NCBI GenBank assembly: GCA_038729485.1
Contig: JAVYRX010000004.1
Coordinates: 10,183 to 74,182 of the forward strand
DNA: 64,000 bases
Reading direction: 5' to 3'
Origin: Thermoplasmatales archaeon
GTDB lineage: Archaea; Thermoplasmatota; Thermoplasmata; Thermoplasmatales; GCA-001856825
Shown here in pieces: positions 2,549-59,900 of this stretch (its first letter is position 1; each line of letters begins with the position of its first letter). Below the pieces are notes generated by a model. It did not search any database. It was given only the letters and a program-made list of their open reading frames with translations, and had not been told where the DNA came from. The position numbers and the translations under genes are program-made.

Positions 2549-3327
2549 TCTATCGTTTTCACTATACTCTTATTAACATAATAATCTTTCACCATTTTGA
2601 AAAATTCGGTTGAATCTTCATCACCCAAATACCGCCTCGTTTCCGTCAGACTATGCGTGATGGAAATACAACAAGAATTGAGGCGTAACAGATCGACTGC
2701 GACATCGCTTGATAGAGCAGCATCAGAAATGGCTTCAATGCGATCTAGTTATATTGAACAGTTACCTTTCTATGGTGTTTGCTGCAGGACGGCACCATTC
2801 TGCCTGAATTTGTAAACATTCAATTTTTCAGAATTGTTCTTAAGTTGTGCGATCTGTGATAACATTCGTATATGATGAGAAACGTTGCTCTAATTATAAA
2901 AAGTAGGACAAACAGGATGTATCCAACGTCTCAAACCGCTCCATCAAATGGACATGCTGGATAGCTCAAATATCCCCTAAAGTTGAGTATGTAAAAGAGT
3001 ATTCCAATCCAAATAAGTATTGTTACATTTTCATCCTCCAATCTCTACTAATGAATTTCTTTGCAGTGTGAGATAGCATTACACATGGAATTACATATAC
3101 TTTTCAAATCAAAGAGGACAAACGTTATCTGAAATGCATGGACAGATTCTCATTAATGGGGATGCATTGATGCTGGAAGTACAGGAAAGTCGTAACATCT
3201 GGTTGGTAGTCACACATAAATAGATCGTCTCGGTCTTAATCCCACATCATCAGACAGGATTGAATGATCTGGAAACGTTAAATAGAAAATTCATAGATGT
3301 GAAAGCTGTTGTGCAGGTGAAGCTTTT

Positions 3328-3948
3328 ATGGGATGGGAGAAGGAAAGATTTTTGCTTGAGACAAAATTTTCCATAATGCCTCGATCTGACGATGAGAGGT
3401 CAAAACACCGCATGTTTCATGGCAATCTGAGCAGGGAAGATCCTACAAGTCTAATTGAGAAGTTCGGAATTAAGAATGGGATGAGAGTGGTAGATCTAGG
3501 CAGCGGGATAGGATTTTATACTATTCCCATTGCAAAGGCAGTTGGCCCTGGCGGGCAGGTATTCGCTCTAGATATAGACCTGGGGTCACTTCAGTCCATC
3601 AAGGATAGGACTAGGGAAGACGGCATCAGTAATGTCAGCGTAATGCGCTGCAACATAGAAATGTTACCATTCAAGGATAAAAAAATTGATGTCGTATTCC
3701 TCGCAAACGTATTTCACGACGTAGATGACAGGAACGCTCTCTTAATGGACATAAATAGAGTTTTGAAGCGTCCAGGCCTTGTGATTGATTTTGATTGGGC
3801 CGACATAATGACAGATTACGGGCCTCCCTTGTACCTCAGGATCAATGAGAATGTGGCAAGAAAAACCTTCGAGGAAGCAGGATTTAGAACCATCAGGTCT
3901 ATGCACATTCAAGATCATCATTATGCTCTGATATTTGCGCTGAGTTAA
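3328..3948 (+). CDS. Class I SAM-dependent methyltransferase
   Basis: VVDLGSGIGFYT (motif I), VFALDID (acidic motif II) and VDVVFLANVFHD. The start codon is uncertain because several in-frame Met codons lie near the N-terminus. Confidence 0.75.
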   Translation: MGWEKERFLLETKFSIMPRSDDERSKHRMFHGNLSREDPTSLIEKFGIKNGMRVVDLGSGIGFYTIPIAKAVGPGGQVFALDIDLGSLQSIKDRTREDGISNVSVMRCNIEMLPFKDKKIDVVFLANVFHDVDDRNALLMDINRVLKRPGLVIDFDWADIMTDYGPPLYLRINENVARKTFEEAGFRTIRSMHIQDHHYALIFALS

Positions 3949-4894: not shown

Positions 4895-6421
4895 ATGACA
4901 TTCATTGATAGGATAAGAGCAATTGAAATTGCGTTTCGATTTTTTCCCCGAGCAAGGTACCTGAGGTACTATCAGAGGTACGTGGAAAGAACAGGGAATC
5001 CGCCTGATGCAGAAAAAACGCGTGTTGAAGCAAATAAACTCCGTGATGCCATGATTAAGTCTGGGCCGCTTTTCATAAAATTAGGGCAGCTTCTTTCCTC
5101 TAGGAGAGACGTTATCCCTGAGGAATACCTTCAGGCTCTAACGGATCTCCAGGACCGCGTTCCTTTGCCTAAATTTGCTCCAGTAAAAGTACTCCTGGAA
5201 CAGGAGTTGGGAAAGCTAGATAGCGTTTTTGAGACATTTGATCCTGCAGGTATATCGGGGGCAAGTTTAGGTCTAGTCTATAGGGCAAAATATAAGGGCA
5301 GAGACGTTGCCGTGAAGGTAAACCGCCCTGGCATCAGAGAGAGAATAATAAAGGATAAACCAAGAATTGAAACTTTTGTGAAACTGTTAGAAAGGTATCT
5401 CTTGAAGTCGTTTTCGCTTTCCACGTTTACGCAGGAATTTCTTGCAAGCTTGGAACTTGAATTGGACTATAAAAGAGAGGCAGAATCAATAGAAATAATA
5501 GGGGGGAAAATAGAGGAGCTTGATCTCGGAATGGAGATAGTCGTTCCAAAGGTATTCAAAGAAATATCCACCTCTAAAGTATTGGTGATGGAGTATCTTG
5601 ATTATATTAAGATAAGTGACATCGAAGAATTAAAGAAGAACGGCGCTGATCTCAAATTTCTGGCTGAAGTGATAGATAAGTTATTCCTTCGCCTTGCGCT
5701 AAGGGAAGGGAGGTTTCACGCAGATCCGCACCCAGGAAACATAGGCTGGAGAAAGGACAACAAGCTCGTCTTAATGGATTTTGGGATGACTTCAGAGCTC
5801 AGTGAGGAGCTTAGAGATAAGTTGCTCATGGGCTATTATTACCTTGCGACTTTCGATGCTAGAAACCTTCTAAAGGTGCTCGTTGACTTGGATTTAATTG
5901 ATCCAGCTGCCGACAAGATTTTCATGGAGCAGCTCTTAAGAACAGTTTTCAAGGACCTTCAGGGAAAGGAAGTAACAAGCATGGAATATAACGAGCTTAT
6001 GCATAGAGCGAACGTAATACTCTTCAGATTTCCATTTAGATTGCCTTATAATTTGGCACTATTTGCAAGGATGTCGGTGATCCTTGAAGGAGTATGTAAG
6101 GGGCTTAATCCTAATTTTCAGTTTATAAGCGTCGTTGCGGAAATAATGGATGAAGAACACGCATCAATAAAGGTCATAAAAACGAGAATTCTCGGTTTCC
6201 CAGGCAGGATTAGACGGACCATAGAAGATTTTATGAGCATTCCGGAGCTTCTTAAAAACGTAAATAGAGCTCTATATCAGAGGCACCAGAAAAACTACTC
6301 AGGGGCGATAATCTCCGGAGCACTTTTCGTAACTGGCTCTCTCCTTTTTACGAAGCTCTACCTCTCGATACCCTTCTTTGTCGTCGGAGCTATTCTCGCC
6401 TTTTTTGCCCTAAGGCATTAG
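4895..6421 (+). CDS. ABC1/UbiB (AarF) atypical kinase family protein
   Basis: ASLGLVYRAKYKGRDVAVKVNRPG (nucleotide-binding Lys), HADPHPGN (catalytic loop) and MDFGM. A C-terminal hydrophobic anchor is present. 508 aa. Confidence 0.85.
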   Translation: MTFIDRIRAIEIAFRFFPRARYLRYYQRYVERTGNPPDAEKTRVEANKLRDAMIKSGPLFIKLGQLLSSRRDVIPEEYLQALTDLQDRVPLPKFAPVKVLLEQELGKLDSVFETFDPAGISGASLGLVYRAKYKGRDVAVKVNRPGIRERIIKDKPRIETFVKLLERYLLKSFSLSTFTQEFLASLELELDYKREAESIEIIGGKIEELDLGMEIVVPKVFKEISTSKVLVMEYLDYIKISDIEELKKNGADLKFLAEVIDKLFLRLALREGRFHADPHPGNIGWRKDNKLVLMDFGMTSELSEELRDKLLMGYYYLATFDARNLLKVLVDLDLIDPAADKIFMEQLLRTVFKDLQGKEVTSMEYNELMHRANVILFRFPFRLPYNLALFARMSVILEGVCKGLNPNFQFISVVAEIMDEEHASIKVIKTRILGFPGRIRRTIEDFMSIPELLKNVNRALYQRHQKNYSGAIISGALFVTGSLLFTKLYLSIPFFVVGAILAFFALRH

Positions 6422-30682: not shown

Positions 30683-31771
30683 ATGACTATGGTAGACAAT
30701 AATTTCCAAAATCCGAGAAATTTCGTCTCACCGGACGATGAAGAACTCGCAAAAATCGTTGAATCGCTTAAGATAAACATTAGGATTGTTGGGTGCGGAG
30801 GTGCAGGGACCAACACTATCAACAGGTGCGCCAAATCCGGAATTTACGGCGCTGATCTAATAGCTATGAATACGGATGCTCCGCATTTACTTACCATTCA
30901 GGCAAACAGGAAACTTCTAGTTGGTAAGAGGACAACTGGAGGCAGAGGGGCAGGCGCCTTGCCTCAGGTAGGGGAGGAGGCCGCTAAGGAAAATTACGAT
31001 GAAATAGTTTCGTTGATAGGAAATTCAGAAATCGTATTCATAACGTCTGGAATGGGTGGAGGCACCGGAACCGGTGTTGCCCCTGTCGTCGCGGAGGTTG
31101 CAAAAAGGCAAAAATCCTTGGTCATCAGCATAGTCACGCTGCCATTCTCAGCGGAGGGAAAGGTCAGGATGGACAATGCAATATACGGCATTGAGAAGCT
31201 CAGAAAAGTATCCGACACTACGATTGTAATTCCAAATGACAAGCTATTGGAAATAGTGCCCAGGCTCCCGCTGGATCAGGCATTCAAGGTAGCGGATGAA
31301 ATATTGATGGAGTCGCTTAAGGGCTTAACGGAGATAATCACCAAGCCTGGTCTCGTGAATCTCGATTATTCTGATATACAGACCGTAATGAAGGAGGGTG
31401 GAGTTGCAATGATCGGAATCGGCGAAAGCGTCGGTGGCAAAGCGACGGTTGAAGAGGCAGTTACAGAGGCGATAACTTCCCCGCTTATTGAGGCCGATAT
31501 TTCCACGACAAAGGGAGCCCTAGTAAGAATCGTAGGCGGGGAGGATATGACAATTTCACAGGCAGAGTTGGCTGTTAGGATGATACAGGAAAGGATAAAC
31601 CCCATGGCTAGGATTGTCTGGGGAGCTTCAGTCGATCCGTCGCTTAAGGGTGAATTTAAGGTGCTTGTCGTCCTAACGGGAGTAAATTCCCCATACTTCC
31701 TCAACTCCACAAAAGGAGTCGCAATTAAAGGAGCGAGGGGACTGGACGCAGAAATAGACTCGGTGATGTAA
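30683..31771 (+). CDS. ftsZ: Cell division GTPase FtsZ
   Basis: GCGGAGTNTINR, tubulin signature GMGGGTGTG, LPFSAEGKVRMDNA, IVIPNDKL and NLDYSDI (T7 loop). 362 aa. Confidence 0.95.
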   Translation: MTMVDNNFQNPRNFVSPDDEELAKIVESLKINIRIVGCGGAGTNTINRCAKSGIYGADLIAMNTDAPHLLTIQANRKLLVGKRTTGGRGAGALPQVGEEAAKENYDEIVSLIGNSEIVFITSGMGGGTGTGVAPVVAEVAKRQKSLVISIVTLPFSAEGKVRMDNAIYGIEKLRKVSDTTIVIPNDKLLEIVPRLPLDQAFKVADEILMESLKGLTEIITKPGLVNLDYSDIQTVMKEGGVAMIGIGESVGGKATVEEAVTEAITSPLIEADISTTKGALVRIVGGEDMTISQAELAVRMIQERINPMARIVWGASVDPSLKGEFKVLVVLTGVNSPYFLNSTKGVAIKGARGLDAEIDSVM

Positions 31772-31772
31772 G

Positions 31773-32153
31773 ATGGACAAGAAAAGTTTTAGGTTGGCCT
31801 CGGGGCTTCTCGGCTTTCTGGCTTCTATTCTCTTTGTTCTATACGTATTCCAGTTGTCCCACACTGTGCTTCAGGGAATTCTGTATACTTCATTCGCGTT
31901 GCTCGCTTATGCACTTGCCTCGTATCTTGCATTGTACAATTCCCAGAACAGGTATGTCAGACTGGTGCCGTTCGTCTACCTTGGAGCAGGACTTGCAATG
32001 ATATACGCAGTTGAGATAGTAATTGGCGGGCACCGCATGTTTCTATACCTGGCTCTCACAACCGCATTGATTGCTGCGATAAGCTATCTTTATGCCGCAT
32101 ATTCTGCAGGCTACGGAAGAGCCTCATCGAAGCTCGGCGTGAAAGCACACTAA
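31773..32153 (+). CDS. Hypothetical 4-TM membrane protein
   Basis: 126 aa. It starts 1 nt after the ftsZ stop and consists of four hydrophobic helices. Confidence 0.5.
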   Translation: MDKKSFRLASGLLGFLASILFVLYVFQLSHTVLQGILYTSFALLAYALASYLALYNSQNRYVRLVPFVYLGAGLAMIYAVEIVIGGHRMFLYLALTTALIAAISYLYAAYSAGYGRASSKLGVKAH

Positions 32154-53639: not shown

Positions 53640-54911
53640 TTAGGAGACGGGAAGGGATTTTTGTAGCGGTTTAACGTCTTTTAATTGGGAGATAAGTTCG
53701 TCCTTCATCAGCAGATCCTTAAGGTGCTGTTGATCGTAATTAAGCATTATTGTAGTCGTCCTTCCATATCGTCCGAAGCTCATCACCTCAGAATTGAGAA
53801 GTCCTAGGCTGCTAAGCTCATTGACAATATCCGCAATTCTTCTTTGGGTGAGGTTGGAAATTCCCAACCTTTCACAGACCCTTATGTAGAGATCGTAGAG
53901 CTCGCCCGTCGTTGATTTACCGCCATTCCTAATTTCATTTATAAGCGTGGCGGAAAACAGAACAAGTTTGCTATGAAGCGGAAGCGTAGCCACAGTGTCG
54001 GCAACGACGTCCCTTTCAAGTTTGCTTTTAGCACTGTATATTATCTCCTCAGTAATTCTCTTGTCGTCGCTCATCTCAACTAGCTCTACCGCGACTTTTA
54101 GAAGGTCTATAGCCCTCCTGGCATCACCGTGCTCCTGTGCCGCAAGGGCCGCGCATACCTTAAGTGCTGAATCCTCTATCGAATCCGATATTCCCGCATA
54201 TATCACCCTGTCCTCTAGTATGTCGTATATCTGGGAAGCATTGTAAGGGTTGAATACTATGGTCTCTTCCACAAGGCGACTCTTCACCCTTGGGTCTAGA
54301 TATTCCGTGAATCTTAGGTCGTTGCTTATACCTATTAATGAAACTCTCGATTTGTCGAGTTCCTCGTTCATGCGAAGTAGCTGATAGAGCACTCCGTCGC
54401 CGTTTCTTTTTACTAGCCTGTCTACCTCGTCAAGGGAAATTATAACGATTCCGTTGAGTCCATTGATCTTTTCTAGGACCACGTTGTATAATCTGTCAAG
54501 TGGCCATCCCGTGAATGGGAGTTTCTCCTCCCAGTCATTCCTTATGCCCTCGCCCACCGCCAGGAGTACGCCGTAAGAATTATCGATTACGCCGCAGTTG
54601 ATGTCCACGATTTTGACGTTTGTCCTTATCGAAGACTCTGTTGCCTTTCTCATTTCGTTTTCAACAAATCTTACAACGCTTGTTTTGCCTACTCCGGGTT
54701 TTCCGAATATTATTGCGTTTGAGGGTCTATTTCCAGCTAGTGAGGGGGAAAGGATCCTGGCAAGCTGATCTGTTTCCTGTTCCCTGTGGGGCAGCCTTTC
54801 TGGCAGGAATCCTGGTTCGAGTGCTTTCCTCTCCCCTGTTACTATGGAGCCTGAATTCACAAATTTATCAAATATATTCCTAGATACTTTTTCCATATTT
54901 ACTAGCATCAA
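53640..54911 (-). CDS. cdc6-1: Orc1/Cdc6 replication initiator (paralog 1)
   Basis: LPHREQE, Walker A GKPGVGKTS, Walker B ISLDEVD, ISND, sensor-2 GDARRAIDLL and a C-terminal winged helix. The start may be the downstream Met (MEKVS). Confidence 0.9.
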   Translation of the reverse strand: MMLVNMEKVSRNIFDKFVNSGSIVTGERKALEPGFLPERLPHREQETDQLARILSPSLAGNRPSNAIIFGKPGVGKTSVVRFVENEMRKATESSIRTNVKIVDINCGVIDNSYGVLLAVGEGIRNDWEEKLPFTGWPLDRLYNVVLEKINGLNGIVIISLDEVDRLVKRNGDGVLYQLLRMNEELDKSRVSLIGISNDLRFTEYLDPRVKSRLVEETIVFNPYNASQIYDILEDRVIYAGISDSIEDSALKVCAALAAQEHGDARRAIDLLKVAVELVEMSDDKRITEEIIYSAKSKLERDVVADTVATLPLHSKLVLFSATLINEIRNGGKSTTGELYDLYIRVCERLGISNLTQRRIADIVNELSSLGLLNSEVMSFGRYGRTTTIMLNYDQQHLKDLLMKDELISQLKDVKPLQKSLPVS

Positions 54912-54983: not shown

Positions 54984-55006
54984 ACCCCCCTTGATTTCCA
55001 CTGGAA
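54984..55006 (-). promoter_or_regulatory. Origin recognition box (ORB)-like element
   Basis: The minus strand reads TTCCAGTGGAAATCAAGGGGGGT. That is the dyad TTCCAGTGGAAA plus a downstream G-string, matching the archaeal ORB consensus as I remember it. It lies 73 nt upstream of cdc6-1, next to an AT-rich stretch. Confidence 0.6.
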
Positions 55007-55020
55007 GTTTTTCAGTTAAA

Positions 55021-56334
55021 TTACTCAACGGGCGTCTCGTTTCCACTGGAACTATAAATGTCTTCCATTCCGCTACCCCTGTTTTCTAGAGTGTCTATTA
55101 TTTTTTCAGTCTCGCCCACTAGATAAAGCGAGCCTGTAACGATCACGTCCTCCTTGCTGTTGTATGCCTCAGAAATGGCCTCAAAGGGTCTCTCCCGTAT
55201 TTCTATGTCATTGAAGAAAAGTGAGGCCTCTTTTTTGAGAATCGATGCGTCCTTCCTCCTTTCTGGCTCGTTTGGCTCGGTTATGATAATCTTCGAGGAT
55301 ACCTCTGATAGATTTTGAAGAATGTTGAAGCTGTTCTTGTCCTTCAATACTCCAAGCACTATCAGCGGATCTTTTATTCCGTAAAGCTTCACGTTGTTAG
55401 CAAGAACCCTTGTTGCCTCAGAGTTATGAGCCCCGTCTAGAATAAACAGAGGCTTTTTTCTTCTGATCTCAAATCTTCCGGGGACTCTAGTCTCGGAGAT
55501 GCCCTTCAATACGTCCTCCTTCTTTGGTGCAAAATTAATAGACTCGGCCGAAAGTATGGCAGCAATAGAGTTATTGACTTGATGCATTCCCAATGCTTTT
55601 AAGACCACGTCGTAGCCGTCGACTTCGGTCTCCAGATGAAAACTTGTGCCATTCAGGGAGTAAGATAGATTGCTAATTTTGCAATTTTCCGTCTCCTTTA
55701 TTGGTGAATTGTTTTCCTTTGCTATGTTAACTAATATTTTCTTTGCCTGATCCGGAACTTTTCCTATTACCACGGGCCGATTTTTCTTTATTATCCCACC
55801 CTTTTCTCTCGCAATGTCCTCTATGCTACCTCCCAGTCTGTCGGCGTGTTCTAACGATATGCTAGTTATCACGGACACCTCGGGCAGGACAATGTTCGTT
55901 GAGTCTAATTTGCCTCCAAGGCCTACCTCAATAGAGGCGAACTGCACACCCAACTCTCTGAAATAATCAAAAGCCATTACCGTAGTGTACTCAAAGAACG
56001 TTAGTTGAACCTCTTCCCCATAAAAATTTATTTTAGTCGGATGTTTTTCCACGAATTCACGTATAAATACTGAGGGTATCTGTTCCCCATCTACAATGAT
56101 CCTCTCGTTGAATCTCCTGAGGTGCGGAGAGGTGTATATTCCACACTTTAGCTTCCTCCGGAAGATGTTATAAATGAACGAGGTGGTGGAGCCCTTGCCG
56201 TTAGATCCGGTTATATGTGCGCTCCTGAATGATTTATGGGGATCTCCAAGCATGGCGGAAAAAGTGGCTGTGGGACCCAGGCCAAGTTTGATGCCGAATC
56301 TTGAAAGCGAAAATAGGTACTCTTCCCAATCCAT
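55021..56334 (-). CDS. folC: Folylpolyglutamate synthase / dihydrofolate synthase (Mur ligase family)
   Basis: P-loop ITGSNGKGST, EVGLGG, SLEHADRLG and LDGAHN. 437 aa. Confidence 0.85.
   Translation of the reverse strand: MDWEEYLFSLSRFGIKLGLGPTATFSAMLGDPHKSFRSAHITGSNGKGSTTSFIYNIFRRKLKCGIYTSPHLRRFNERIIVDGEQIPSVFIREFVEKHPTKINFYGEEVQLTFFEYTTVMAFDYFRELGVQFASIEVGLGGKLDSTNIVLPEVSVITSISLEHADRLGGSIEDIAREKGGIIKKNRPVVIGKVPDQAKKILVNIAKENNSPIKETENCKISNLSYSLNGTSFHLETEVDGYDVVLKALGMHQVNNSIAAILSAESINFAPKKEDVLKGISETRVPGRFEIRRKKPLFILDGAHNSEATRVLANNVKLYGIKDPLIVLGVLKDKNSFNILQNLSEVSSKIIITEPNEPERRKDASILKKEASLFFNDIEIRERPFEAISEAYNSKEDVIVTGSLYLVGETEKIIDTLENRGSGMEDIYSSSGNETPVE
55040..55051 (-). promoter_or_regulatory. 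Second exact copy of the 12-mer TTCCAGTGGAAA (mini-ORB-like)
   Basis: An identical 12-mer lies 45 bp from the first in the same orientation, inside the last codons of folC (minus strand TTCCAGTGGAAACGAGACGCCCG). Confidence 0.45.
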
Positions 56335-56388: not shown

Positions 56389-57069
56389 ATGAACCATATT
56401 AGGGTAATCTTCGTAGAACCAAAGAACCCTGGAAATTTAGGTGCAATTGCAAGGATAATGAAAAACTTTGATGTGGAAGACCTAGTCATAGTCAATGCTC
56501 ATCGGATACCCAGTGAGGACATCTTCAGGTCTATGAAAGGTTACGAAGTTCTCAAGAAAGCAAAAATGGTAAGCTCCCTTTATGAAGCTTCTATTGGGCT
56601 GACATACCTGATCGGTACATCGGACGTAAAAGGCGATTCTCCAAAGACGGTCAGGAGAAAATACGTTACGCCACGGCAATTCAGAGTAATGCTTTCAAAC
56701 ATAAGTGGAAGCATAGGCATAGTGTTGGGGCGGGAAGACATAGGCTTAACAAACGAGGAACTGTCCATGTGTGATTTCTTCGTTCACATCCCTGCATCTT
56801 CAAGCTATCCGACCTTGAATGTTTCGAGCGCTGCAGCAATAATACTTTACGAACTATTCAGGGTTGAGAATAAGACTAATAAGCAATTGGCGTCTAGGGA
56901 GAATATAGATGCACTCGTATCTAAATTTAGGCAGAATCTGGAGGCCAACGGCTACCCGAAGCATCGCATAGAAAAAACAAGCTTAATATTCAAAAGAATA
57001 CTCACAAGATCTTTGTTGTCTGATTATGAACACAGAGTCCTCATGGGGGCAATCGGATGCAGGCGGTAA
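56389..57069 (+). CDS. SpoU/TrmH-class RNA 2'-O-methyltransferase (TrmJ-like)
   Basis: IRVIFVEPKNPGNLGAIARIMKNF, VLGREDIGLTNEEL and NVSSAAAIILYEL. The ATG at 56389 is preferred over the TTG at 56368. Confidence 0.75.
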   Translation: MNHIRVIFVEPKNPGNLGAIARIMKNFDVEDLVIVNAHRIPSEDIFRSMKGYEVLKKAKMVSSLYEASIGLTYLIGTSDVKGDSPKTVRRKYVTPRQFRVMLSNISGSIGIVLGREDIGLTNEELSMCDFFVHIPASSSYPTLNVSSAAAIILYELFRVENKTNKQLASRENIDALVSKFRQNLEANGYPKHRIEKTSLIFKRILTRSLLSDYEHRVLMGAIGCRR

Positions 57070-57266
57070 TTTTTTGTCGCTCCTTCTTGTTTAGGGAGAA
57101 GCGAAAGATCCAATCACTCCCCCTGATCAATTTGGCGATTTCAGCCTGAATTGAACTGGTTATATTTGCGCGGGTAGGGTTAAATCGTGATATAAAACGT
57201 TAAATGGGCTACCCTTTCTCTTGATTTTCCTTTAATTGACTATGCAAAGAGTAAGAGCCGTGATTT

Positions 57267-57797
57267 TTAGGACGATACCGAGGGATTAAAACCAAGAACA
57301 CCCTTAGACCCCGTGGCGTATCCGCCGGTGATCATTGCTGCCTCTGGAACAAGCTTGAAAATGAGTGTCTGAACGTACGAGTCTATTCTGTCCATTGCCT
57401 CCTTCCAGGATTTTTCAAGCATCGCGGAGGCAAAATTTTCATTCTCTACGACATCGCAAGAAGCCACCATCCTTTTGACGCCCCTCAGCGTGTTCTCAGC
57501 TCTGATCTTTCTCTCTTCTGATTCAGAGTTGAATGGCATTATCGCTATTAGAAATATTTTCTTTCCCTTGGTGGCGAGAGCATTGCAGACTGACGGAAGA
57601 ACTGAAGAGGAGAACTCGCCGGCGGGCGAGGTTATTATAATGACTTCTTCCTTGCTCCCAACATCCAGTTTCTCTAGAGCTTTGTCAGGAGAGGATATCG
57701 TAGAGGAATCTAATAGGGTGGCATGGGGGATATTTATTGATTTTGTTATATTTATACCTGCACCTCCTATTCCTATAATGGCTACTTTGTCTGACAT
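57267..57797 (-). CDS. Truncated FtsZ/tubulin-like protein (N-terminal GTPase domain only, degenerate signature loop)
   Basis: The 176-aa protein aligns by eye to this window's own FtsZ at three blocks. VAIIGIGGAGINITKSI aligns with IRIVGCGGAGTNTINRC. EEVIIITSPAGEFSSSVLPSV aligns with SEIVFITSGMGGGTGTGVAPVV. FLIAIMPFNSESEERKIRAENTLRGVKRMVASCDVVENENF aligns with [41 protein letters not shown]. It ends soon after the H7 equivalent, with no T7 loop or C-terminal domain. Confidence 0.6.
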   Translation of the reverse strand: MSDKVAIIGIGGAGINITKSINIPHATLLDSSTISSPDKALEKLDVGSKEEVIIITSPAGEFSSSVLPSVCNALATKGKKIFLIAIMPFNSESEERKIRAENTLRGVKRMVASCDVVENENFASAMLEKSWKEAMDRIDSYVQTLIFKLVPEAAMITGGYATGSKGVLGFNPSVSS

Positions 57798-57854
57798 ATT
57801 AATGACATTGATATGACACTACTTATATCTTTTGGTCCTTGAACGTATAACTAC

Positions 57855-58925
57855 TCACTGTATCCTACGAATCGCACTAACTTTCATTAAGAGAACCTTT
57901 GGAGGAACCTTGAAGAAATACTCATTTTCTACACCACCGCCGTAACCTCGGCCAAGTTTCTTCTTACCGATGAATCCTGAAAGCTCTAGGGAGTTGACAA
58001 ACTTGTACAGCTTAGAATCCGAAATGTCAGGCCTAAGTTTCTTGATTTCTATGCTTCTGAATGTGGGCCTCTCACCCAGTTCGTTTAAAACGTCTTCAAG
58101 CATTTCTATATCGTCCTGTTCCAGATTTGCTAACGAACTGTCCTCTAAAGGCGGAGAAAATTCCCTGTATGCTTCCAGGACTACATTTTCGTCCAAATAG
58201 GTGCCCCGGGCCTCCGCCATCAGGGATGAGCTCTTAAGCAGTTCAATTGCAGTTCTTGCGCTGCCGCTATTTTCGACAAGATAAGAAATTCTGTCAAGAG
58301 CGTCTGATGCGTAGGAGCCATCATAAAGGCCCGCCTCTGCTCTTTCTTTGATTATGCTAAGAAGCTCTTCCCTTGAATACTCCCTTAACGTTATTCTGTT
58401 GTATTTTCCGAGGCCTGAAATAGTGCTATTATCCAAAAACATTTCTGGCTCTTCTATAGTTAAAAGAACTAGATTTAGATTTGGGCCTCCAAGTTCATTG
58501 CTTCTAGAGAGGATATAAACGATCTGCGCATGAACCTTTCTTAATGAGTGTGCCTCGTCAAGTATTATCATAGACTTGTTAGGCAGCTCTTTTAGCAGAA
58601 GCTTGAAGAGATAATCCGTGGAAACATTCTGGTATTCGTATGACCTACCTGTTAGCAAGTTAAGAACGTGCGTTACGATCGACCTGTCTGTGGAATTGAC
58701 GTAACAGTTTACGTAAATCCCGTTCAATTCAGGGAGCTGCTTCACCAAATACTTTCCGAGGAGAGTCTTCCCTACGCCAGGATTCCCTCTAACGATGAAT
58801 ATTGAAGAATCGCTTAGGTGCATCAAGTTCACGATTCTTGAGACATATTGCTCTCTGCCAACAAACTTTGAGGGTATGTAGTCTTGAGAAAATACGGACT
58901 GATTAGATATGACCTTCATTTTCAT
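57855..58925 (-). CDS. cdc6-2: Orc1/Cdc6 replication initiator (paralog 2, shorter)
   Basis: YIPSKFVGREQ, Walker A GNPGVGKTL, Walker B MIILDEAH, GSARTAIELLK and a C-terminal winged helix (LYKFVNSLELSGFIGKKKLGRGYGG). 356 aa. Confidence 0.85.
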   Translation of the reverse strand: MKMKVISNQSVFSQDYIPSKFVGREQYVSRIVNLMHLSDSSIFIVRGNPGVGKTLLGKYLVKQLPELNGIYVNCYVNSTDRSIVTHVLNLLTGRSYEYQNVSTDYLFKLLLKELPNKSMIILDEAHSLRKVHAQIVYILSRSNELGGPNLNLVLLTIEEPEMFLDNSTISGLGKYNRITLREYSREELLSIIKERAEAGLYDGSYASDALDRISYLVENSGSARTAIELLKSSSLMAEARGTYLDENVVLEAYREFSPPLEDSSLANLEQDDIEMLEDVLNELGERPTFRSIEIKKLRPDISDSKLYKFVNSLELSGFIGKKKLGRGYGGGVENEYFFKVPPKVLLMKVSAIRRIQ

Positions 58926-58967
58926 ACTTCAAACAAAAATTAATTATAAAGCCTACTATGAAGGGGT

Positions 58968-59900
58968 ATGGAATTTATAACGCTAGGGAAATCTGATCTA
59001 AAGGTGTCTGTGATCGGTTTAGGAGCCTGGCAGGCTGGCGCGAAGGGCTGGGGGAAGATTGTAGATTCCGACGTAAAGGATGCAATTTTGACTTCTGTAG
59101 AACTAGGCTTAAATTTCATAGATACTGCTGAAGTTTATGGCGACGGACATTCCGAAGAGGTTATAGGGCAGGTTATAAAAGATTTCAGAGACGAAATCGT
59201 CATTGCGACAAAGGTTTCCGGTAACCACCTGAAGCCGGACCACATAGAAAGGGCGCTGGAGGGAAGCTTGAAGAGGCTGAATACTAACTATATAGATCTA
59301 TATCAGATACACTGGCCAGACATTTATACGTCGCTCAGGGACACAATGAAGACATTGGAAAGATTGGCCGCAAATGGCAAAATAAGATACATAGGCCTGT
59401 CCAACTTTAGCGTATGCCAAATAGAGGAAGCCAGGTCATATCTTTCGACGATGGACATAGTTTCAAACCAAGTCAGATACAACATAATACAGCGGGAGAT
59501 AGAGGATGAGATGCTTCCGTATCTCAACAAGGAAAAGATAAGCGTTATTGCATATTCCCCCCTGGCTCAGGGGCTGTTGACGTTCAAATATGATCACGCG
59601 TCCTTTGAGCCAACAGACGTTAGACGCAGCAATAAGCTATTTTCTGAAAGCAACATAAAAATAATTTCTTCTTTTTTGGCCGTGCTAAGGGAGATATCTA
59701 TGGAAACAGGCCATTCGGTTGTACAGATTGCGCTTAACTGGCTCATATCCAAGGGAAACATTGTCCCCATTCCAGGTGCGAAGAACAGGGATCAGGCCAC
59801 AATAAATTTACAGTCCAGTGGATGGCGTCTAGACCCGGAACAGAACAAGAGGATTGAGGAAAAATACCGGGAAATAACGGATAAGATAGACCTTTTCTGA
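58968..59900 (+). CDS. Aldo/keto reductase
   Basis: GLGAW, FIDTAEVYGDGHSEE (catalytic Asp/Tyr), ATKV (Lys), LYQIHWPD (His), IGLSNF and IPGAKN. Confidence 0.9.
   Translation: MEFITLGKSDLKVSVIGLGAWQAGAKGWGKIVDSDVKDAILTSVELGLNFIDTAEVYGDGHSEEVIGQVIKDFRDEIVIATKVSGNHLKPDHIERALEGSLKRLNTNYIDLYQIHWPDIYTSLRDTMKTLERLAANGKIRYIGLSNFSVCQIEEARSYLSTMDIVSNQVRYNIIQREIEDEMLPYLNKEKISVIAYSPLAQGLLTFKYDHASFEPTDVRRSNKLFSESNIKIISSFLAVLREISMETGHSVVQIALNWLISKGNIVPIPGAKNRDQATINLQSSGWRLDPEQNKRIEEKYREITDKIDLF

Follow-up and report, generated by a model that had tools for sequence, protein, structure and literature searches.

RESULTS

A half-size FtsZ homolog in the window

The window analyzed here, a 64-kb stretch of contig JAVYRX010000004.1 from a Thermoplasmatales archaeon, carries on its minus strand a gene for a 176-amino-acid (aa) FtsZ-like protein, referred to below as mini-FtsZ. 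The gene lies 57 nucleotides (nt) downstream of cdc6L, which is on the same strand and encodes a divergent Orc1/Cdc6 paralog, and the window also contains a bona fide ftsZ gene. A first-pass annotation, made from the window sequence, had described this pairing, and the sizes, shared strand and spacing that it gave for the two open reading frames (ORFs) were reproduced. The three genes are as follows.

57267..57797, minus strand: mini-FtsZ gene, 176 aa (ORF, Pfam, hhalign, AlphaFold2 [AF2] model, Foldseek, and ratio of nonsynonymous to synonymous substitution [dN/dS])
57855..58925, minus strand: cdc6L, divergent Orc1/Cdc6 paralog, 356 aa (Pfam, TIGR02928, and Protein Data Bank [PDB] matches)
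30683..31771, plus strand: bona fide FtsZ, 362 aa (Pfam Tubulin, 160 bits; FtsZ_C, 95 bits; TIGR00065, 382 bits)

The relationship to FtsZ, which had been proposed by eye, was borne out by profile and fold searches. BLASTP comparison of mini-FtsZ with the window FtsZ gave an E value of only 0.003, and the single protein matched Pfam Tubulin (PF00091) with an E value of 1.1e-7 and 32.8 bits, the gathering cutoff being 33 bits; its orthologs P0009 and P0011 cleared this cutoff with 38.5 and 33.1 bits, respectively. The TIGR00065 score was 22 bits (cutoff, 295.2), and no match to FtsZ_C (PF12327) was found in the Pfam scan. When an 11-sequence family alignment was compared with 13 diverse FtsZs by hhalign, the probability was 99.5%, with an E value of 5e-23 over 150 columns. 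A PDB search with a 7-sequence family profile returned FtsZ for all of the top 49 matches. The AF2 model of mini-FtsZ (predicted local distance difference test [pLDDT] score of 74; predicted template modeling [TM] score of 0.72) likewise retrieved FtsZ for the top 50 Foldseek matches in the PDB, with an E value of 7e-6 and TM scores of about 0.6 to 0.68 on the query. Among all six-frame ORFs of the window, a hidden Markov model (HMM) of FtsZ built in this study matched only the genuine FtsZ and mini-FtsZ.

Anatomy of the 176-aa protein

The hhalign register placed residues 3 to 152 of mini-FtsZ onto residues 31 to 217 of the window FtsZ, corresponding to S1 through H7, and the beta-alpha order of the AF2 model fitted the succession S1/H1/S2/H3/S4/H4/S5/H5/S6/H6/H7. 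The T1 loop GIGGAGIN (residues 9 to 16) matched GCGGAGTN of FtsZ (residues 37 to 44), as had been noted in the first pass. A gap of about 31 residues corresponded to FtsZ APHLLTIQANRKLLVGKRTTGGRGAGALPQVG, comprising H2, S3, and the T3 loop, so that T2 was partial and T3 absent. The tubulin signature GGGTGTG (G125 to G131 of FtsZ) was aligned with AGEFSSS (A59 to S65), the wider T4 pairing being GMGGGTGTG with SPAGEFSSS; the pattern [SAG]-G-G-T-G-[SA]-G was thus absent, and SPAGxFSS was invariant across the 33 family members described below. In T5/H5, FtsZ PFSAEGxxR was paired with PFNSESEER. E92 fell on a column that is invariant in FtsZ (E158 of the window FtsZ, by the FtsZ alignment and the hhalign register), and R96 follows it by four residues, the spacing of the FtsZ PFxFEGxxR motif. 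In T6, FtsZ IPND was paired with VENE(N), placing N119 on the invariant FtsZ Asn (N185 of the window FtsZ). The H6 segment ENFASAM was invariant but was modeled with low AF2 confidence. H7 was amphipathic and, in the AF2 model, was exposed by the loss of the C-terminal domain. The remaining tail of about 25 residues (about 155 to 176) was variable and poorly conserved, also with low AF2 confidence.

The alignment ended at H7 (residue 152, FtsZ residue 217), leaving mini-FtsZ without the T7 loop and the C-terminal domain. FtsZ and tubulin proteins are built on a two-domain core, and their GTPase site is composite, being completed by the T7 loop of the adjoining subunit. The first-pass statements that the signature was replaced, that the T2/T3 region was shortened, that similarity ended around H7, and that the protein could not complete an FtsZ-type active site all held, the last on the strength of these losses and of established FtsZ structural biology.

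Distribution and selection

A word-indexed search recovered 7 clusters of the mini-FtsZ family. When 1.84 billion representatives were searched exhaustively with an HMM, only six clear family clusters emerged (P0002 and P0008 to P0012), beyond which there was a jump to generic FtsZ-domain matches with E values of at least 1e-15. Mini-FtsZ loci, 27 plus 6 in number, were recovered by scanning the species genomes of GTDB and the metagenomes of JGI. In all, the family comprised 33 distinct sequences, every one from an uncultured Thermoplasmatales, Thermoplasmata, or Thermoplasmatota metagenome-assembled genome (MAG), including acid-mine I-plasma; one of these MAGs had been deposited as Methanobacteriota archaeon. 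The hosts, acidophilic and thermophilic archaea that have not been cultured, form a small group, and no cultured genus with the gene was found in the GTDB and JGI scans, which rely on peptide patterns.

The ORF was intact and began with MSD in all 32 loci, representing at least 19 GTDB species. For the pairs of loci with unsaturated dS (L012/13, L020/22, L001/09, and L007/24), dN/dS by the Nei-Gojobori method was 0.09 to 0.14. Besides the MSD start, 23 residues were at least 95% conserved among the 33 distinct sequences, and all were in four loops: G11, A13, G14, and N16 in T1; S57, P58, A59, G60, F62, S63, S64, and L67 in T4/H4; P88, F89, E92, S93, E95, R96, and R99 in T5/H5; and E118, N119, N121, and F122 in T6. 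By sequence correspondence, these loops are the ones from which FtsZ builds its nucleotide pocket and "top" longitudinal face. In one subclade (L008, L025, L026, L035, and L036), T1 was A[VL]GDAG, with an Asp in the phosphate loop.

The first-pass annotation had allowed that the ORF might be restricted to this genome and free of purifying selection, or that its adjacency to orc1/cdc6 might be absent from related genomes. Instead, the family was present in multiple genomes, was under purifying selection, and kept its place next to cdc6L. Mini-FtsZ is almost certainly a lineage-specific, strongly reduced FtsZ paralog that purifying selection has maintained within a single clade of uncultured, Thermoplasmatales-like archaea.

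A viral or mobile origin was also considered and was rejected, as no relatives were found in IMG/VR, and Foldseek against BFVD retrieved only full-length phage FtsZ/PhuZ-like proteins.

Two-domain relatives of about 250 aa

The family fell into two length classes of 175 to 183 aa and 248 to 252 aa, the latter in L006 to L008, L024 to L027, and L031 to L036, which by the divergence of neighboring genes are the lineages farthest from the window. The extra part of the long forms, about 95 residues, aligned with FtsZ S7/H9 after skipping a 16-residue T7/H8 segment, and AF2 modeled it as a beta-alpha-beta-alpha-beta-beta C-terminal domain (pLDDT of 66). The Foldseek alignment of a long form extended over about 300 columns of the FtsZ core with an E value of 3e-11. 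Long and short forms had the same promoter (see below) and the same invariant motifs. The 176-aa form was derived by secondary truncation from a two-domain reduced FtsZ of about 250 aa that survives in sister and outgroup lineages, a history that could not be seen in the first pass, which had the window sequence alone. The likely course was from FtsZ to a two-domain protein without T3 and T7 and then, in the window lineage, to a protein with the N-terminal domain only.

A remnant of the C-terminal domain beyond the stop codon of the short forms was sought by tblastn of long-form C termini against 1 kb of downstream sequence, giving only noise (best E value of 0.03, in scattered frames and strands). 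At the long-form loci (L006, 6001-6759; L007, 66-821; L008, 6001-6747; L024 to L027; and L031 to L036), the 3' end of the gene overlapped that of the convergent SpoU methyltransferase gene by about 80 to 90 nt. At the short-form loci, by contrast, a spacer (197 nt long in the window) or inserted genes, among them one for a PALP enzyme in L003, lay between the two genes.

A conserved promoter/operator block

The 55 nt upstream of the mini-FtsZ start codon were conserved more than the protein itself. In the same genomes, 31 of 60 upstream columns were at least 90% conserved for mini-FtsZ versus 5 to 9 of 60 for the aldo-keto reductase (AKR), folC, and dCMP deaminase genes. The consensus of 24 distinct sequences was GTTATACGTT-N11-cAAAA-N3-tTAwATA-N-TGTCATATyAA-TGTCATtaaTA-TGTCAGACAA. 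The block occupies 57792-57851 on the minus strand of the window, is also found in L001 to L027 and L031 to L036, and contains the following elements.

57842..57851, minus strand: element GTTATACGTT, at -54..-45 and near-invariant in 24 loci
57820..57833, minus strand: putative transcription factor B recognition element (BRE; cAAAA) and TATA box (tTAwATA; gatataag in the window), both in conserved columns
57814-57818, 57803-57807, and 57792-57796, minus strand: three direct TGTCA repeats with exact 11-bp phasing

The GTTATACGTT element, a candidate activator or regulator site, started 3 to 25 nt past the stop codon of the cdc6-like gene, and the copy at 57842..57851 was the only exact one in the window. 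The BRE/TATA-like block lay 23 to 36 nt upstream of the ATG, with a purine-rich BRE-like run preceding a TATA box centered about 26 to 27 nt before it, and no Shine-Dalgarno sequence was found upstream of the ATG. Archaeal promoters of leaderless transcripts have their BRE/TATA at such a distance. From this position and from the lack of a Shine-Dalgarno sequence, we infer that mini-FtsZ is transcribed from a promoter of its own into a leaderless mRNA.

The TGTCA repeats began at -21, -10, and +2, running from the TATA box to codon 3, with the third lying inside ATG-TCA-GAC. Codon 2 was TCA in 23 of 24 sequences, and codon 3 was GAC in all 24, a synonymous constraint that indicates selection on the DNA. 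The array is operator-like and may be a repressor or regulator site over the transcription start. A regulon was sought and rejected: neither TGTCA-N6-TGTCA (0.06 expected in the window) nor GTTATACRT recurred in the rest of the 64 kb or across the related loci, which totaled about 270 kb. An Rfam scan of 56900-59100 for structured RNA in or around the block gave one chance-level match only.

The first-pass annotation had suggested co-transcription of mini-FtsZ with cdc6L. In locus L015 (2282-5000), three genes spanning 2.7 kb were inserted between the two, and the complete block remained with the mini-FtsZ gene. From the look of their translations, we take the inserted genes to be a 359-aa ORF, a 230-aa ORF resembling short-chain dehydrogenases/reductases, and a 217-aa ORF resembling helix-turn-helix (HTH) proteins. 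The possession of a conserved block and its retention in L015 indicate that co-transcription with cdc6L is not required. T-tracts after cdc6L were inconsistent and formed no consistent terminator, so read-through from cdc6L into mini-FtsZ could still occur. The mini-FtsZ gene appears from these sequences to have its own, evidently important promoter/operator, with control separate from that of cdc6L. That mini-FtsZ is a reduced paralog of FtsZ, under selection and with a promoter of its own, is, in our judgment, highly probable.

The cdc6L gene, its neighborhood, and the probable origin nearby

The neighborhood of mini-FtsZ contains three further features.

58941..58950, minus strand: TATA-like TTTATAATTA, putative cdc6L promoter, in the short divergent intergenic region between the AKR gene and cdc6L
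53640..54911, minus strand: canonical Orc1/Cdc6, 423 aa, with a Cdc6_C winged helix (Pfam)
54995-55006 and 55040-55051, plus strand: two exact copies of the dyad TTTCCACTGGAA, resembling an origin recognition box (ORB), next to orc1

The Orc1/Cdc6 assignment of the upstream gene was upheld, with AAA_22 (44 bits) and Cdc6_lid (42.7 bits) above the Pfam cutoffs, Walker A GNPGVGKT, and Walker B LDEAH. TIGR02928 aligned over residues 5 to 332 with 110.6 bits, under its cutoff of 181.3, and the Pfam scan gave no match to Cdc6_C (PF09079). The closest PDB relatives were 1FNN, 1W5S, and 2QBY_B (P. aerophilum Cdc6, A. pernix ORC2, and S. solfataricus Cdc6-3), and the 2QBY_B alignment covered residues 41 to 339; a winged helix is probably present but divergent. 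Two in-frame ATGs lie 6 nt apart (58925 and 58919), the public gene call using the second (354 aa). The TTTATAATTA box is about 27 nt upstream of this second ATG, consistent with a leaderless start at 58919. The cdc6L family consisted of 39 clusters that were 40 to 74% identical, all from Thermoplasmat* MAGs, with a dN/dS of 0.02 to 0.09.

The gene order dCMP deaminase, AKR (minus strand), cdc6L, mini-FtsZ, SpoU (minus strand), FolC, and Orc1 was constant in every locus, within a syntenic block of about 10 genes, and the gap between cdc6L and mini-FtsZ was 54 to 74 nt, on the same strand, in 30 of the 31 loci that held both genes. These two were the fastest-diverging genes of the block; between L008 and the window, identity was 33% for mini-FtsZ and 40% for cdc6L, compared with 72% for AKR and 55% for Orc1. 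Their identities ran in parallel, with cdc6L/mini-FtsZ values of 74/69, 66/58, 55/47, and 40/33%. As the whole block is syntenic within one clade, their adjacency is weak evidence of a functional link.

The ORB-like motifs had been placed about 2.3 kb from mini-FtsZ in the first pass, which was correct. The two TTTCCACTGGAA copies are 45 bp apart just upstream of the canonical orc1 gene, the second inside the 3' end of folC, and this region is likely the replication origin (oriC).

Context of the window ftsZ gene

The window ftsZ gene is located after the genes for the PolD large subunit and a GPN-loop GTPase. A 126-aa hydrophobic ORF with the look of a multipass membrane protein and no Pfam family (31773-32153, plus strand) begins 2 nt past the ftsZ stop codon and may be co-transcribed with it. 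For assignment as FtsZ1 or FtsZ2, the neighbors (PolD DP2, GPN-loop GTPase, and methionyl-tRNA synthetase) were not diagnostic.

DISCUSSION

A possible FtsZ-derived regulator of FtsZ

We propose that mini-FtsZ is a tightly regulated, nonpolymerizing regulator or capper of FtsZ that is itself derived from FtsZ. This reading, drawn from sequence comparison, is tentative, and we would give it a probability of roughly 0.4. Lacking both the T7 loop and the bottom face, mini-FtsZ would neither form FtsZ-type filaments nor activate GTP hydrolysis in a neighboring subunit. The retained face (T1, T4, T5/H5, and T6), probably with nucleotide bound, would dock on the exposed T7/C-terminal-domain end of an FtsZ subunit or filament; it is the confinement of the invariant residues to four pocket/top-face loops that suggests docking through the top face. 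The docked protein would cap filaments or sequester monomers, acting as a substoichiometric negative regulator of Z-ring assembly, and the target would be the genuine FtsZ, represented in the window by the copy at 30683-31771. The N- and C-terminal domains of FtsZ are known to fold independently, and FtsZ monomers add via the N-terminal domain onto the end at which the C-terminal domain is exposed (PMC11157280). End-capping FtsZ regulators are also known (PMC9897490). Independent folding, polar addition, and the existence of end-cappers together make a capper model plausible.

The promoter would fit such a role. Three helically phased TGTCA repeats over the start site, together with GTTATACGTT, may mean that the gene is normally repressed or is gated by the cell cycle or by stress, and a phased triple operator would suit a product held low until needed. 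The adjacent cdc6L is a candidate regulator of this promoter, a speculation by analogy with Orc1-2 of Sulfolobales, since an Orc1/Cdc6 paralog is able to act as a transcription regulator (PMC6061795). Like Orc1-2, cdc6L encodes a divergent paralog, apart from the origin-adjacent initiator, with AAA+, lid, and winged-helix-like regions (PMC6061795). This likeness does not amount to orthology, and any regulatory role for cdc6L is drawn purely from the analogy. The motif candidates TGTCA and GTTATACGTT differ from ANTTTC, which is reportedly the recognition motif of Orc1-2.

Several points weigh against the proposal that mini-FtsZ acts on FtsZ. Docking on FtsZ is not assured, since mini-FtsZ lacks T3, which contributes to the longitudinal interface and senses the gamma-phosphate, and carries another motif in place of the T4 signature. 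The Asp in the T1 loop of one subclade speaks against a universal need for nucleotide binding. The long form, with a C-terminal domain and without T7, would act unlike a capper consisting of the N-terminal domain only, and it nevertheless shares the promoter and the invariant motifs. The leaderless start rests on geometry, a positional TATA profile over 50 ORFs of the window being too sparse to establish this spacing as typical of the genome.

Other explanations

A role in replication rather than on FtsZ, in which mini-FtsZ works with the cdc6L product, for example as a partner that depends on nucleotide, as a regulator of initiation, or in origin positioning or segregation near oriC, is in our view unlikely. 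The first-pass annotation had raised the possibility of a replication- or segregation-linked module on the basis of adjacency. The near-constant same-strand spacing of 54 to 74 nt (30 of 31 loci), the restriction of both families to the same clade, their rapid divergence in step, the lack of a consistent terminator after cdc6L, and the proximity of the ORB-like repeats and canonical orc1, 2.3 kb away, are what such a module would lead one to expect. Synteny extends, however, over the entire block of about 10 genes at all loci, and common descent explains both adjacency and co-distribution, leaving the adjacency little independent weight. In addition, mini-FtsZ has its own promoter, L015 tolerates three unrelated genes between the pair, and we know of no precedent for a tubulin-fold partner of Orc1/Cdc6. 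The replication-module and co-transcription readings of the first-pass annotation were thus weakened, whereas its sequence statements all stood.

It is also doubtful that the remodeled pocket (SPAGxFSS, MPFxxESxER, and VENENF) has been turned to binding a nucleotide or other metabolite for a new function, as a sensor, enzyme, or scaffold outside FtsZ filaments and replication. The invariant residues do line the former nucleotide pocket, and the tubulin signature has been exchanged for a different, equally invariant motif. Moreover, the low model confidence of the invariant ENFASAM segment of H6 would be expected of a loop ordered by a ligand or partner, and, in bacteria, short FtsZ-like proteins that share the T2/T3 deletion and have a GGxFG[ST] loop occur in unrelated contexts. 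The pocket loops double as the longitudinal interface of FtsZ, however, so their conservation does not discriminate between the two uses, and Pfam and NCBIfam gave only Tubulin/FtsZ for mini-FtsZ, with no catalytic motif of another enzyme family.

We consider it rather improbable that the proposed capper belongs to a full division checkpoint, in which mini-FtsZ is a SulA-like FtsZ end-capper, cdc6L controls the TGTCA promoter, and replication or DNA damage status at the nearby origin is thereby coupled to Z-ring inhibition.

A minimal filament or oligomer that self-assembles through new interfaces, such as the exposed H7 face, and so constitutes a novel cytoskeletal element is more improbable still. 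FtsZl1, which lacks T6-H7 and perhaps polymerizes by a novel mechanism (PMC2875224), offers a precedent, and an amphipathic H7 exposed by loss of the C-terminal domain could provide a surface. The bottom interface and T7 loop are missing, however, T3 is deleted, and one filament lattice could hardly accommodate both the long and the short forms, which have their function-defining motifs in common but are an entire domain apart in size.

Finally, truncation, a degenerate signature, fast evolution, and a disordered, variable tail could suggest a decaying FtsZ remnant or a spurious ORF, a reading that we reject as scarcely credible given an intact ORF in 32 loci and at least 19 GTDB species, a dN/dS of about 0.1, 23 conserved residues besides MSD, and a conserved promoter.

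Comparison with known FtsZ-superfamily proteins and FtsZ inhibitors

By homology and fold, mini-FtsZ belongs to the FtsZ/tubulin superfamily, and it has the characters of neither bona fide FtsZ, CetZ, nor FtsZl1. With FtsZ it shares a homologous N-terminal Rossmann-type GTPase domain from S1 to H7, the T1 motif GxGGAGxN, the T5 PFxxE with the following Arg, the T6 Asn, and the H7 Asn/Asp. It differs in its half length, in the deletion of H2/S3/T3, in the exchange of GGGTGTG for (P)AGxFSS, and in the lack of the T7 loop, H8, the C-terminal domain, and an obvious conserved C-terminal peptide. Judged from these losses, it would be unable to serve as the catalytic "lower" partner in a protofilament. 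In contrast to CetZ, which has two domains, an intact GTP-binding signature, and T7, it is a single-domain protein with an altered signature and no T7.

FtsZl1 is a divergent FtsZ-superfamily protein that has neither the canonical T6-H7 elements nor the C-terminal domain of FtsZ and that may or may not form filaments; it is long, with an FtsZ-like domain, a coiled coil, and an alpha-helical C-terminal domain, and is encoded in membrane-remodeling operons (PMC2875224). Mini-FtsZ resembles FtsZl1 and FtsZl2 in being a divergent superfamily member; unlike FtsZl1, it has 176 aa, retains T6, H6, and H7, is missing T3, and carries no further domains. Neither Thermoplasma nor Orc1/Cdc6 is mentioned in the paper on FtsZl1 and FtsZl2 (PMC2875224). 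A protein of the mini-FtsZ kind was not mentioned in the FtsZ/tubulin superfamily literature searched by term, and nothing was found for I-plasma FtsZ.

SulA, MciZ, and MipZ are inhibitors or cappers of FtsZ with folds unrelated to it, and SulA is under LexA control. The binding to one face of FtsZ proposed for mini-FtsZ would be analogous to that of these proteins and of FtsZ mutants that are defective in T7 or retain the top face only, and its proposed tight regulation would be analogous to that of SulA by LexA. Mini-FtsZ differs from SulA, MciZ, and MipZ in being a natural FtsZ-derived paralog; within this comparison group, it is the engineered mutants that have the FtsZ fold.

Short FtsZ-like proteins in bacteria

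The representative search also returned many short bacterial FtsZ-like proteins of 146 to 223 aa (P0014, P0017 to P0019, P0028, P0032, P0033, and P0038, among others). They align to the mini-FtsZ profile in one continuous stretch, so that, like mini-FtsZ, they lack the T2/T3 region; they also end after H7, and their T4 loop is remodeled to GGxF[GS][ST] instead of GGGTGSG, with the same Phe. Unlike mini-FtsZ, they keep GG in T4 and occur in bacterial or mobile-element contexts, and they matched the mini-FtsZ profile with E values of only 1e-13 to 1e-8, no better than canonical FtsZ N-terminal domains. Either a common origin with the archaeal family or convergence would account for the resemblance. 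They may constitute an undescribed bacterial family, and no literature on them was found. For P0014 and P0017, the contigs were too short for informative gene context.

Other N-terminal-domain proteins were also seen. In the Bacteroidetes MAG locus L028, a 399-aa ORF (4959-6158) with a GLGGDFGTE loop resembles a tandem duplication of the short domain; a 218-aa FtsZ-like ORF (3114-3770) there has GMGGNCGTS and a longer T2/T3 region, and large uncharacterized ORFs adjoin the pair. P0013 (L037, 5001-5600; L038, 1313-1912) is a 199-aa FtsZ consisting of the N-terminal domain only, with an intact GGGTGSG signature. Its gene is followed by two conserved unknown ORFs in a mobile-element-like context with a phage integrase, an HTH_3 repressor, and HU, and a 1234-aa ORC-CDC6-like protein is encoded 4 kb away.

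Implications

The reach of these findings is limited to a narrow clade of uncultured hosts, in which mini-FtsZ is known here from sequence and predicted structure alone, and they are of interest mainly to specialists in the cytoskeleton and the cell cycle. The promoter, conserved beyond its protein, provides a defined DNA probe for a regulator and a test case for a non-initiator Orc1/Cdc6 as a transcription factor outside Sulfolobales. The series from 362 aa (FtsZ) through about 250 aa (without T3 and T7) to 176 aa (without the C-terminal domain), seen in related genomes, affords a rare view of stepwise cytoskeletal reduction. A selected paralog that retains the nucleotide-pocket half alone, with the signature exchanged, suggests that the fold can be reused as a nonpolymerizing module. 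Should mini-FtsZ cap or sequester FtsZ, it would represent the first division inhibitor derived from FtsZ and would join the very few candidate negative regulators of archaeal FtsZ.

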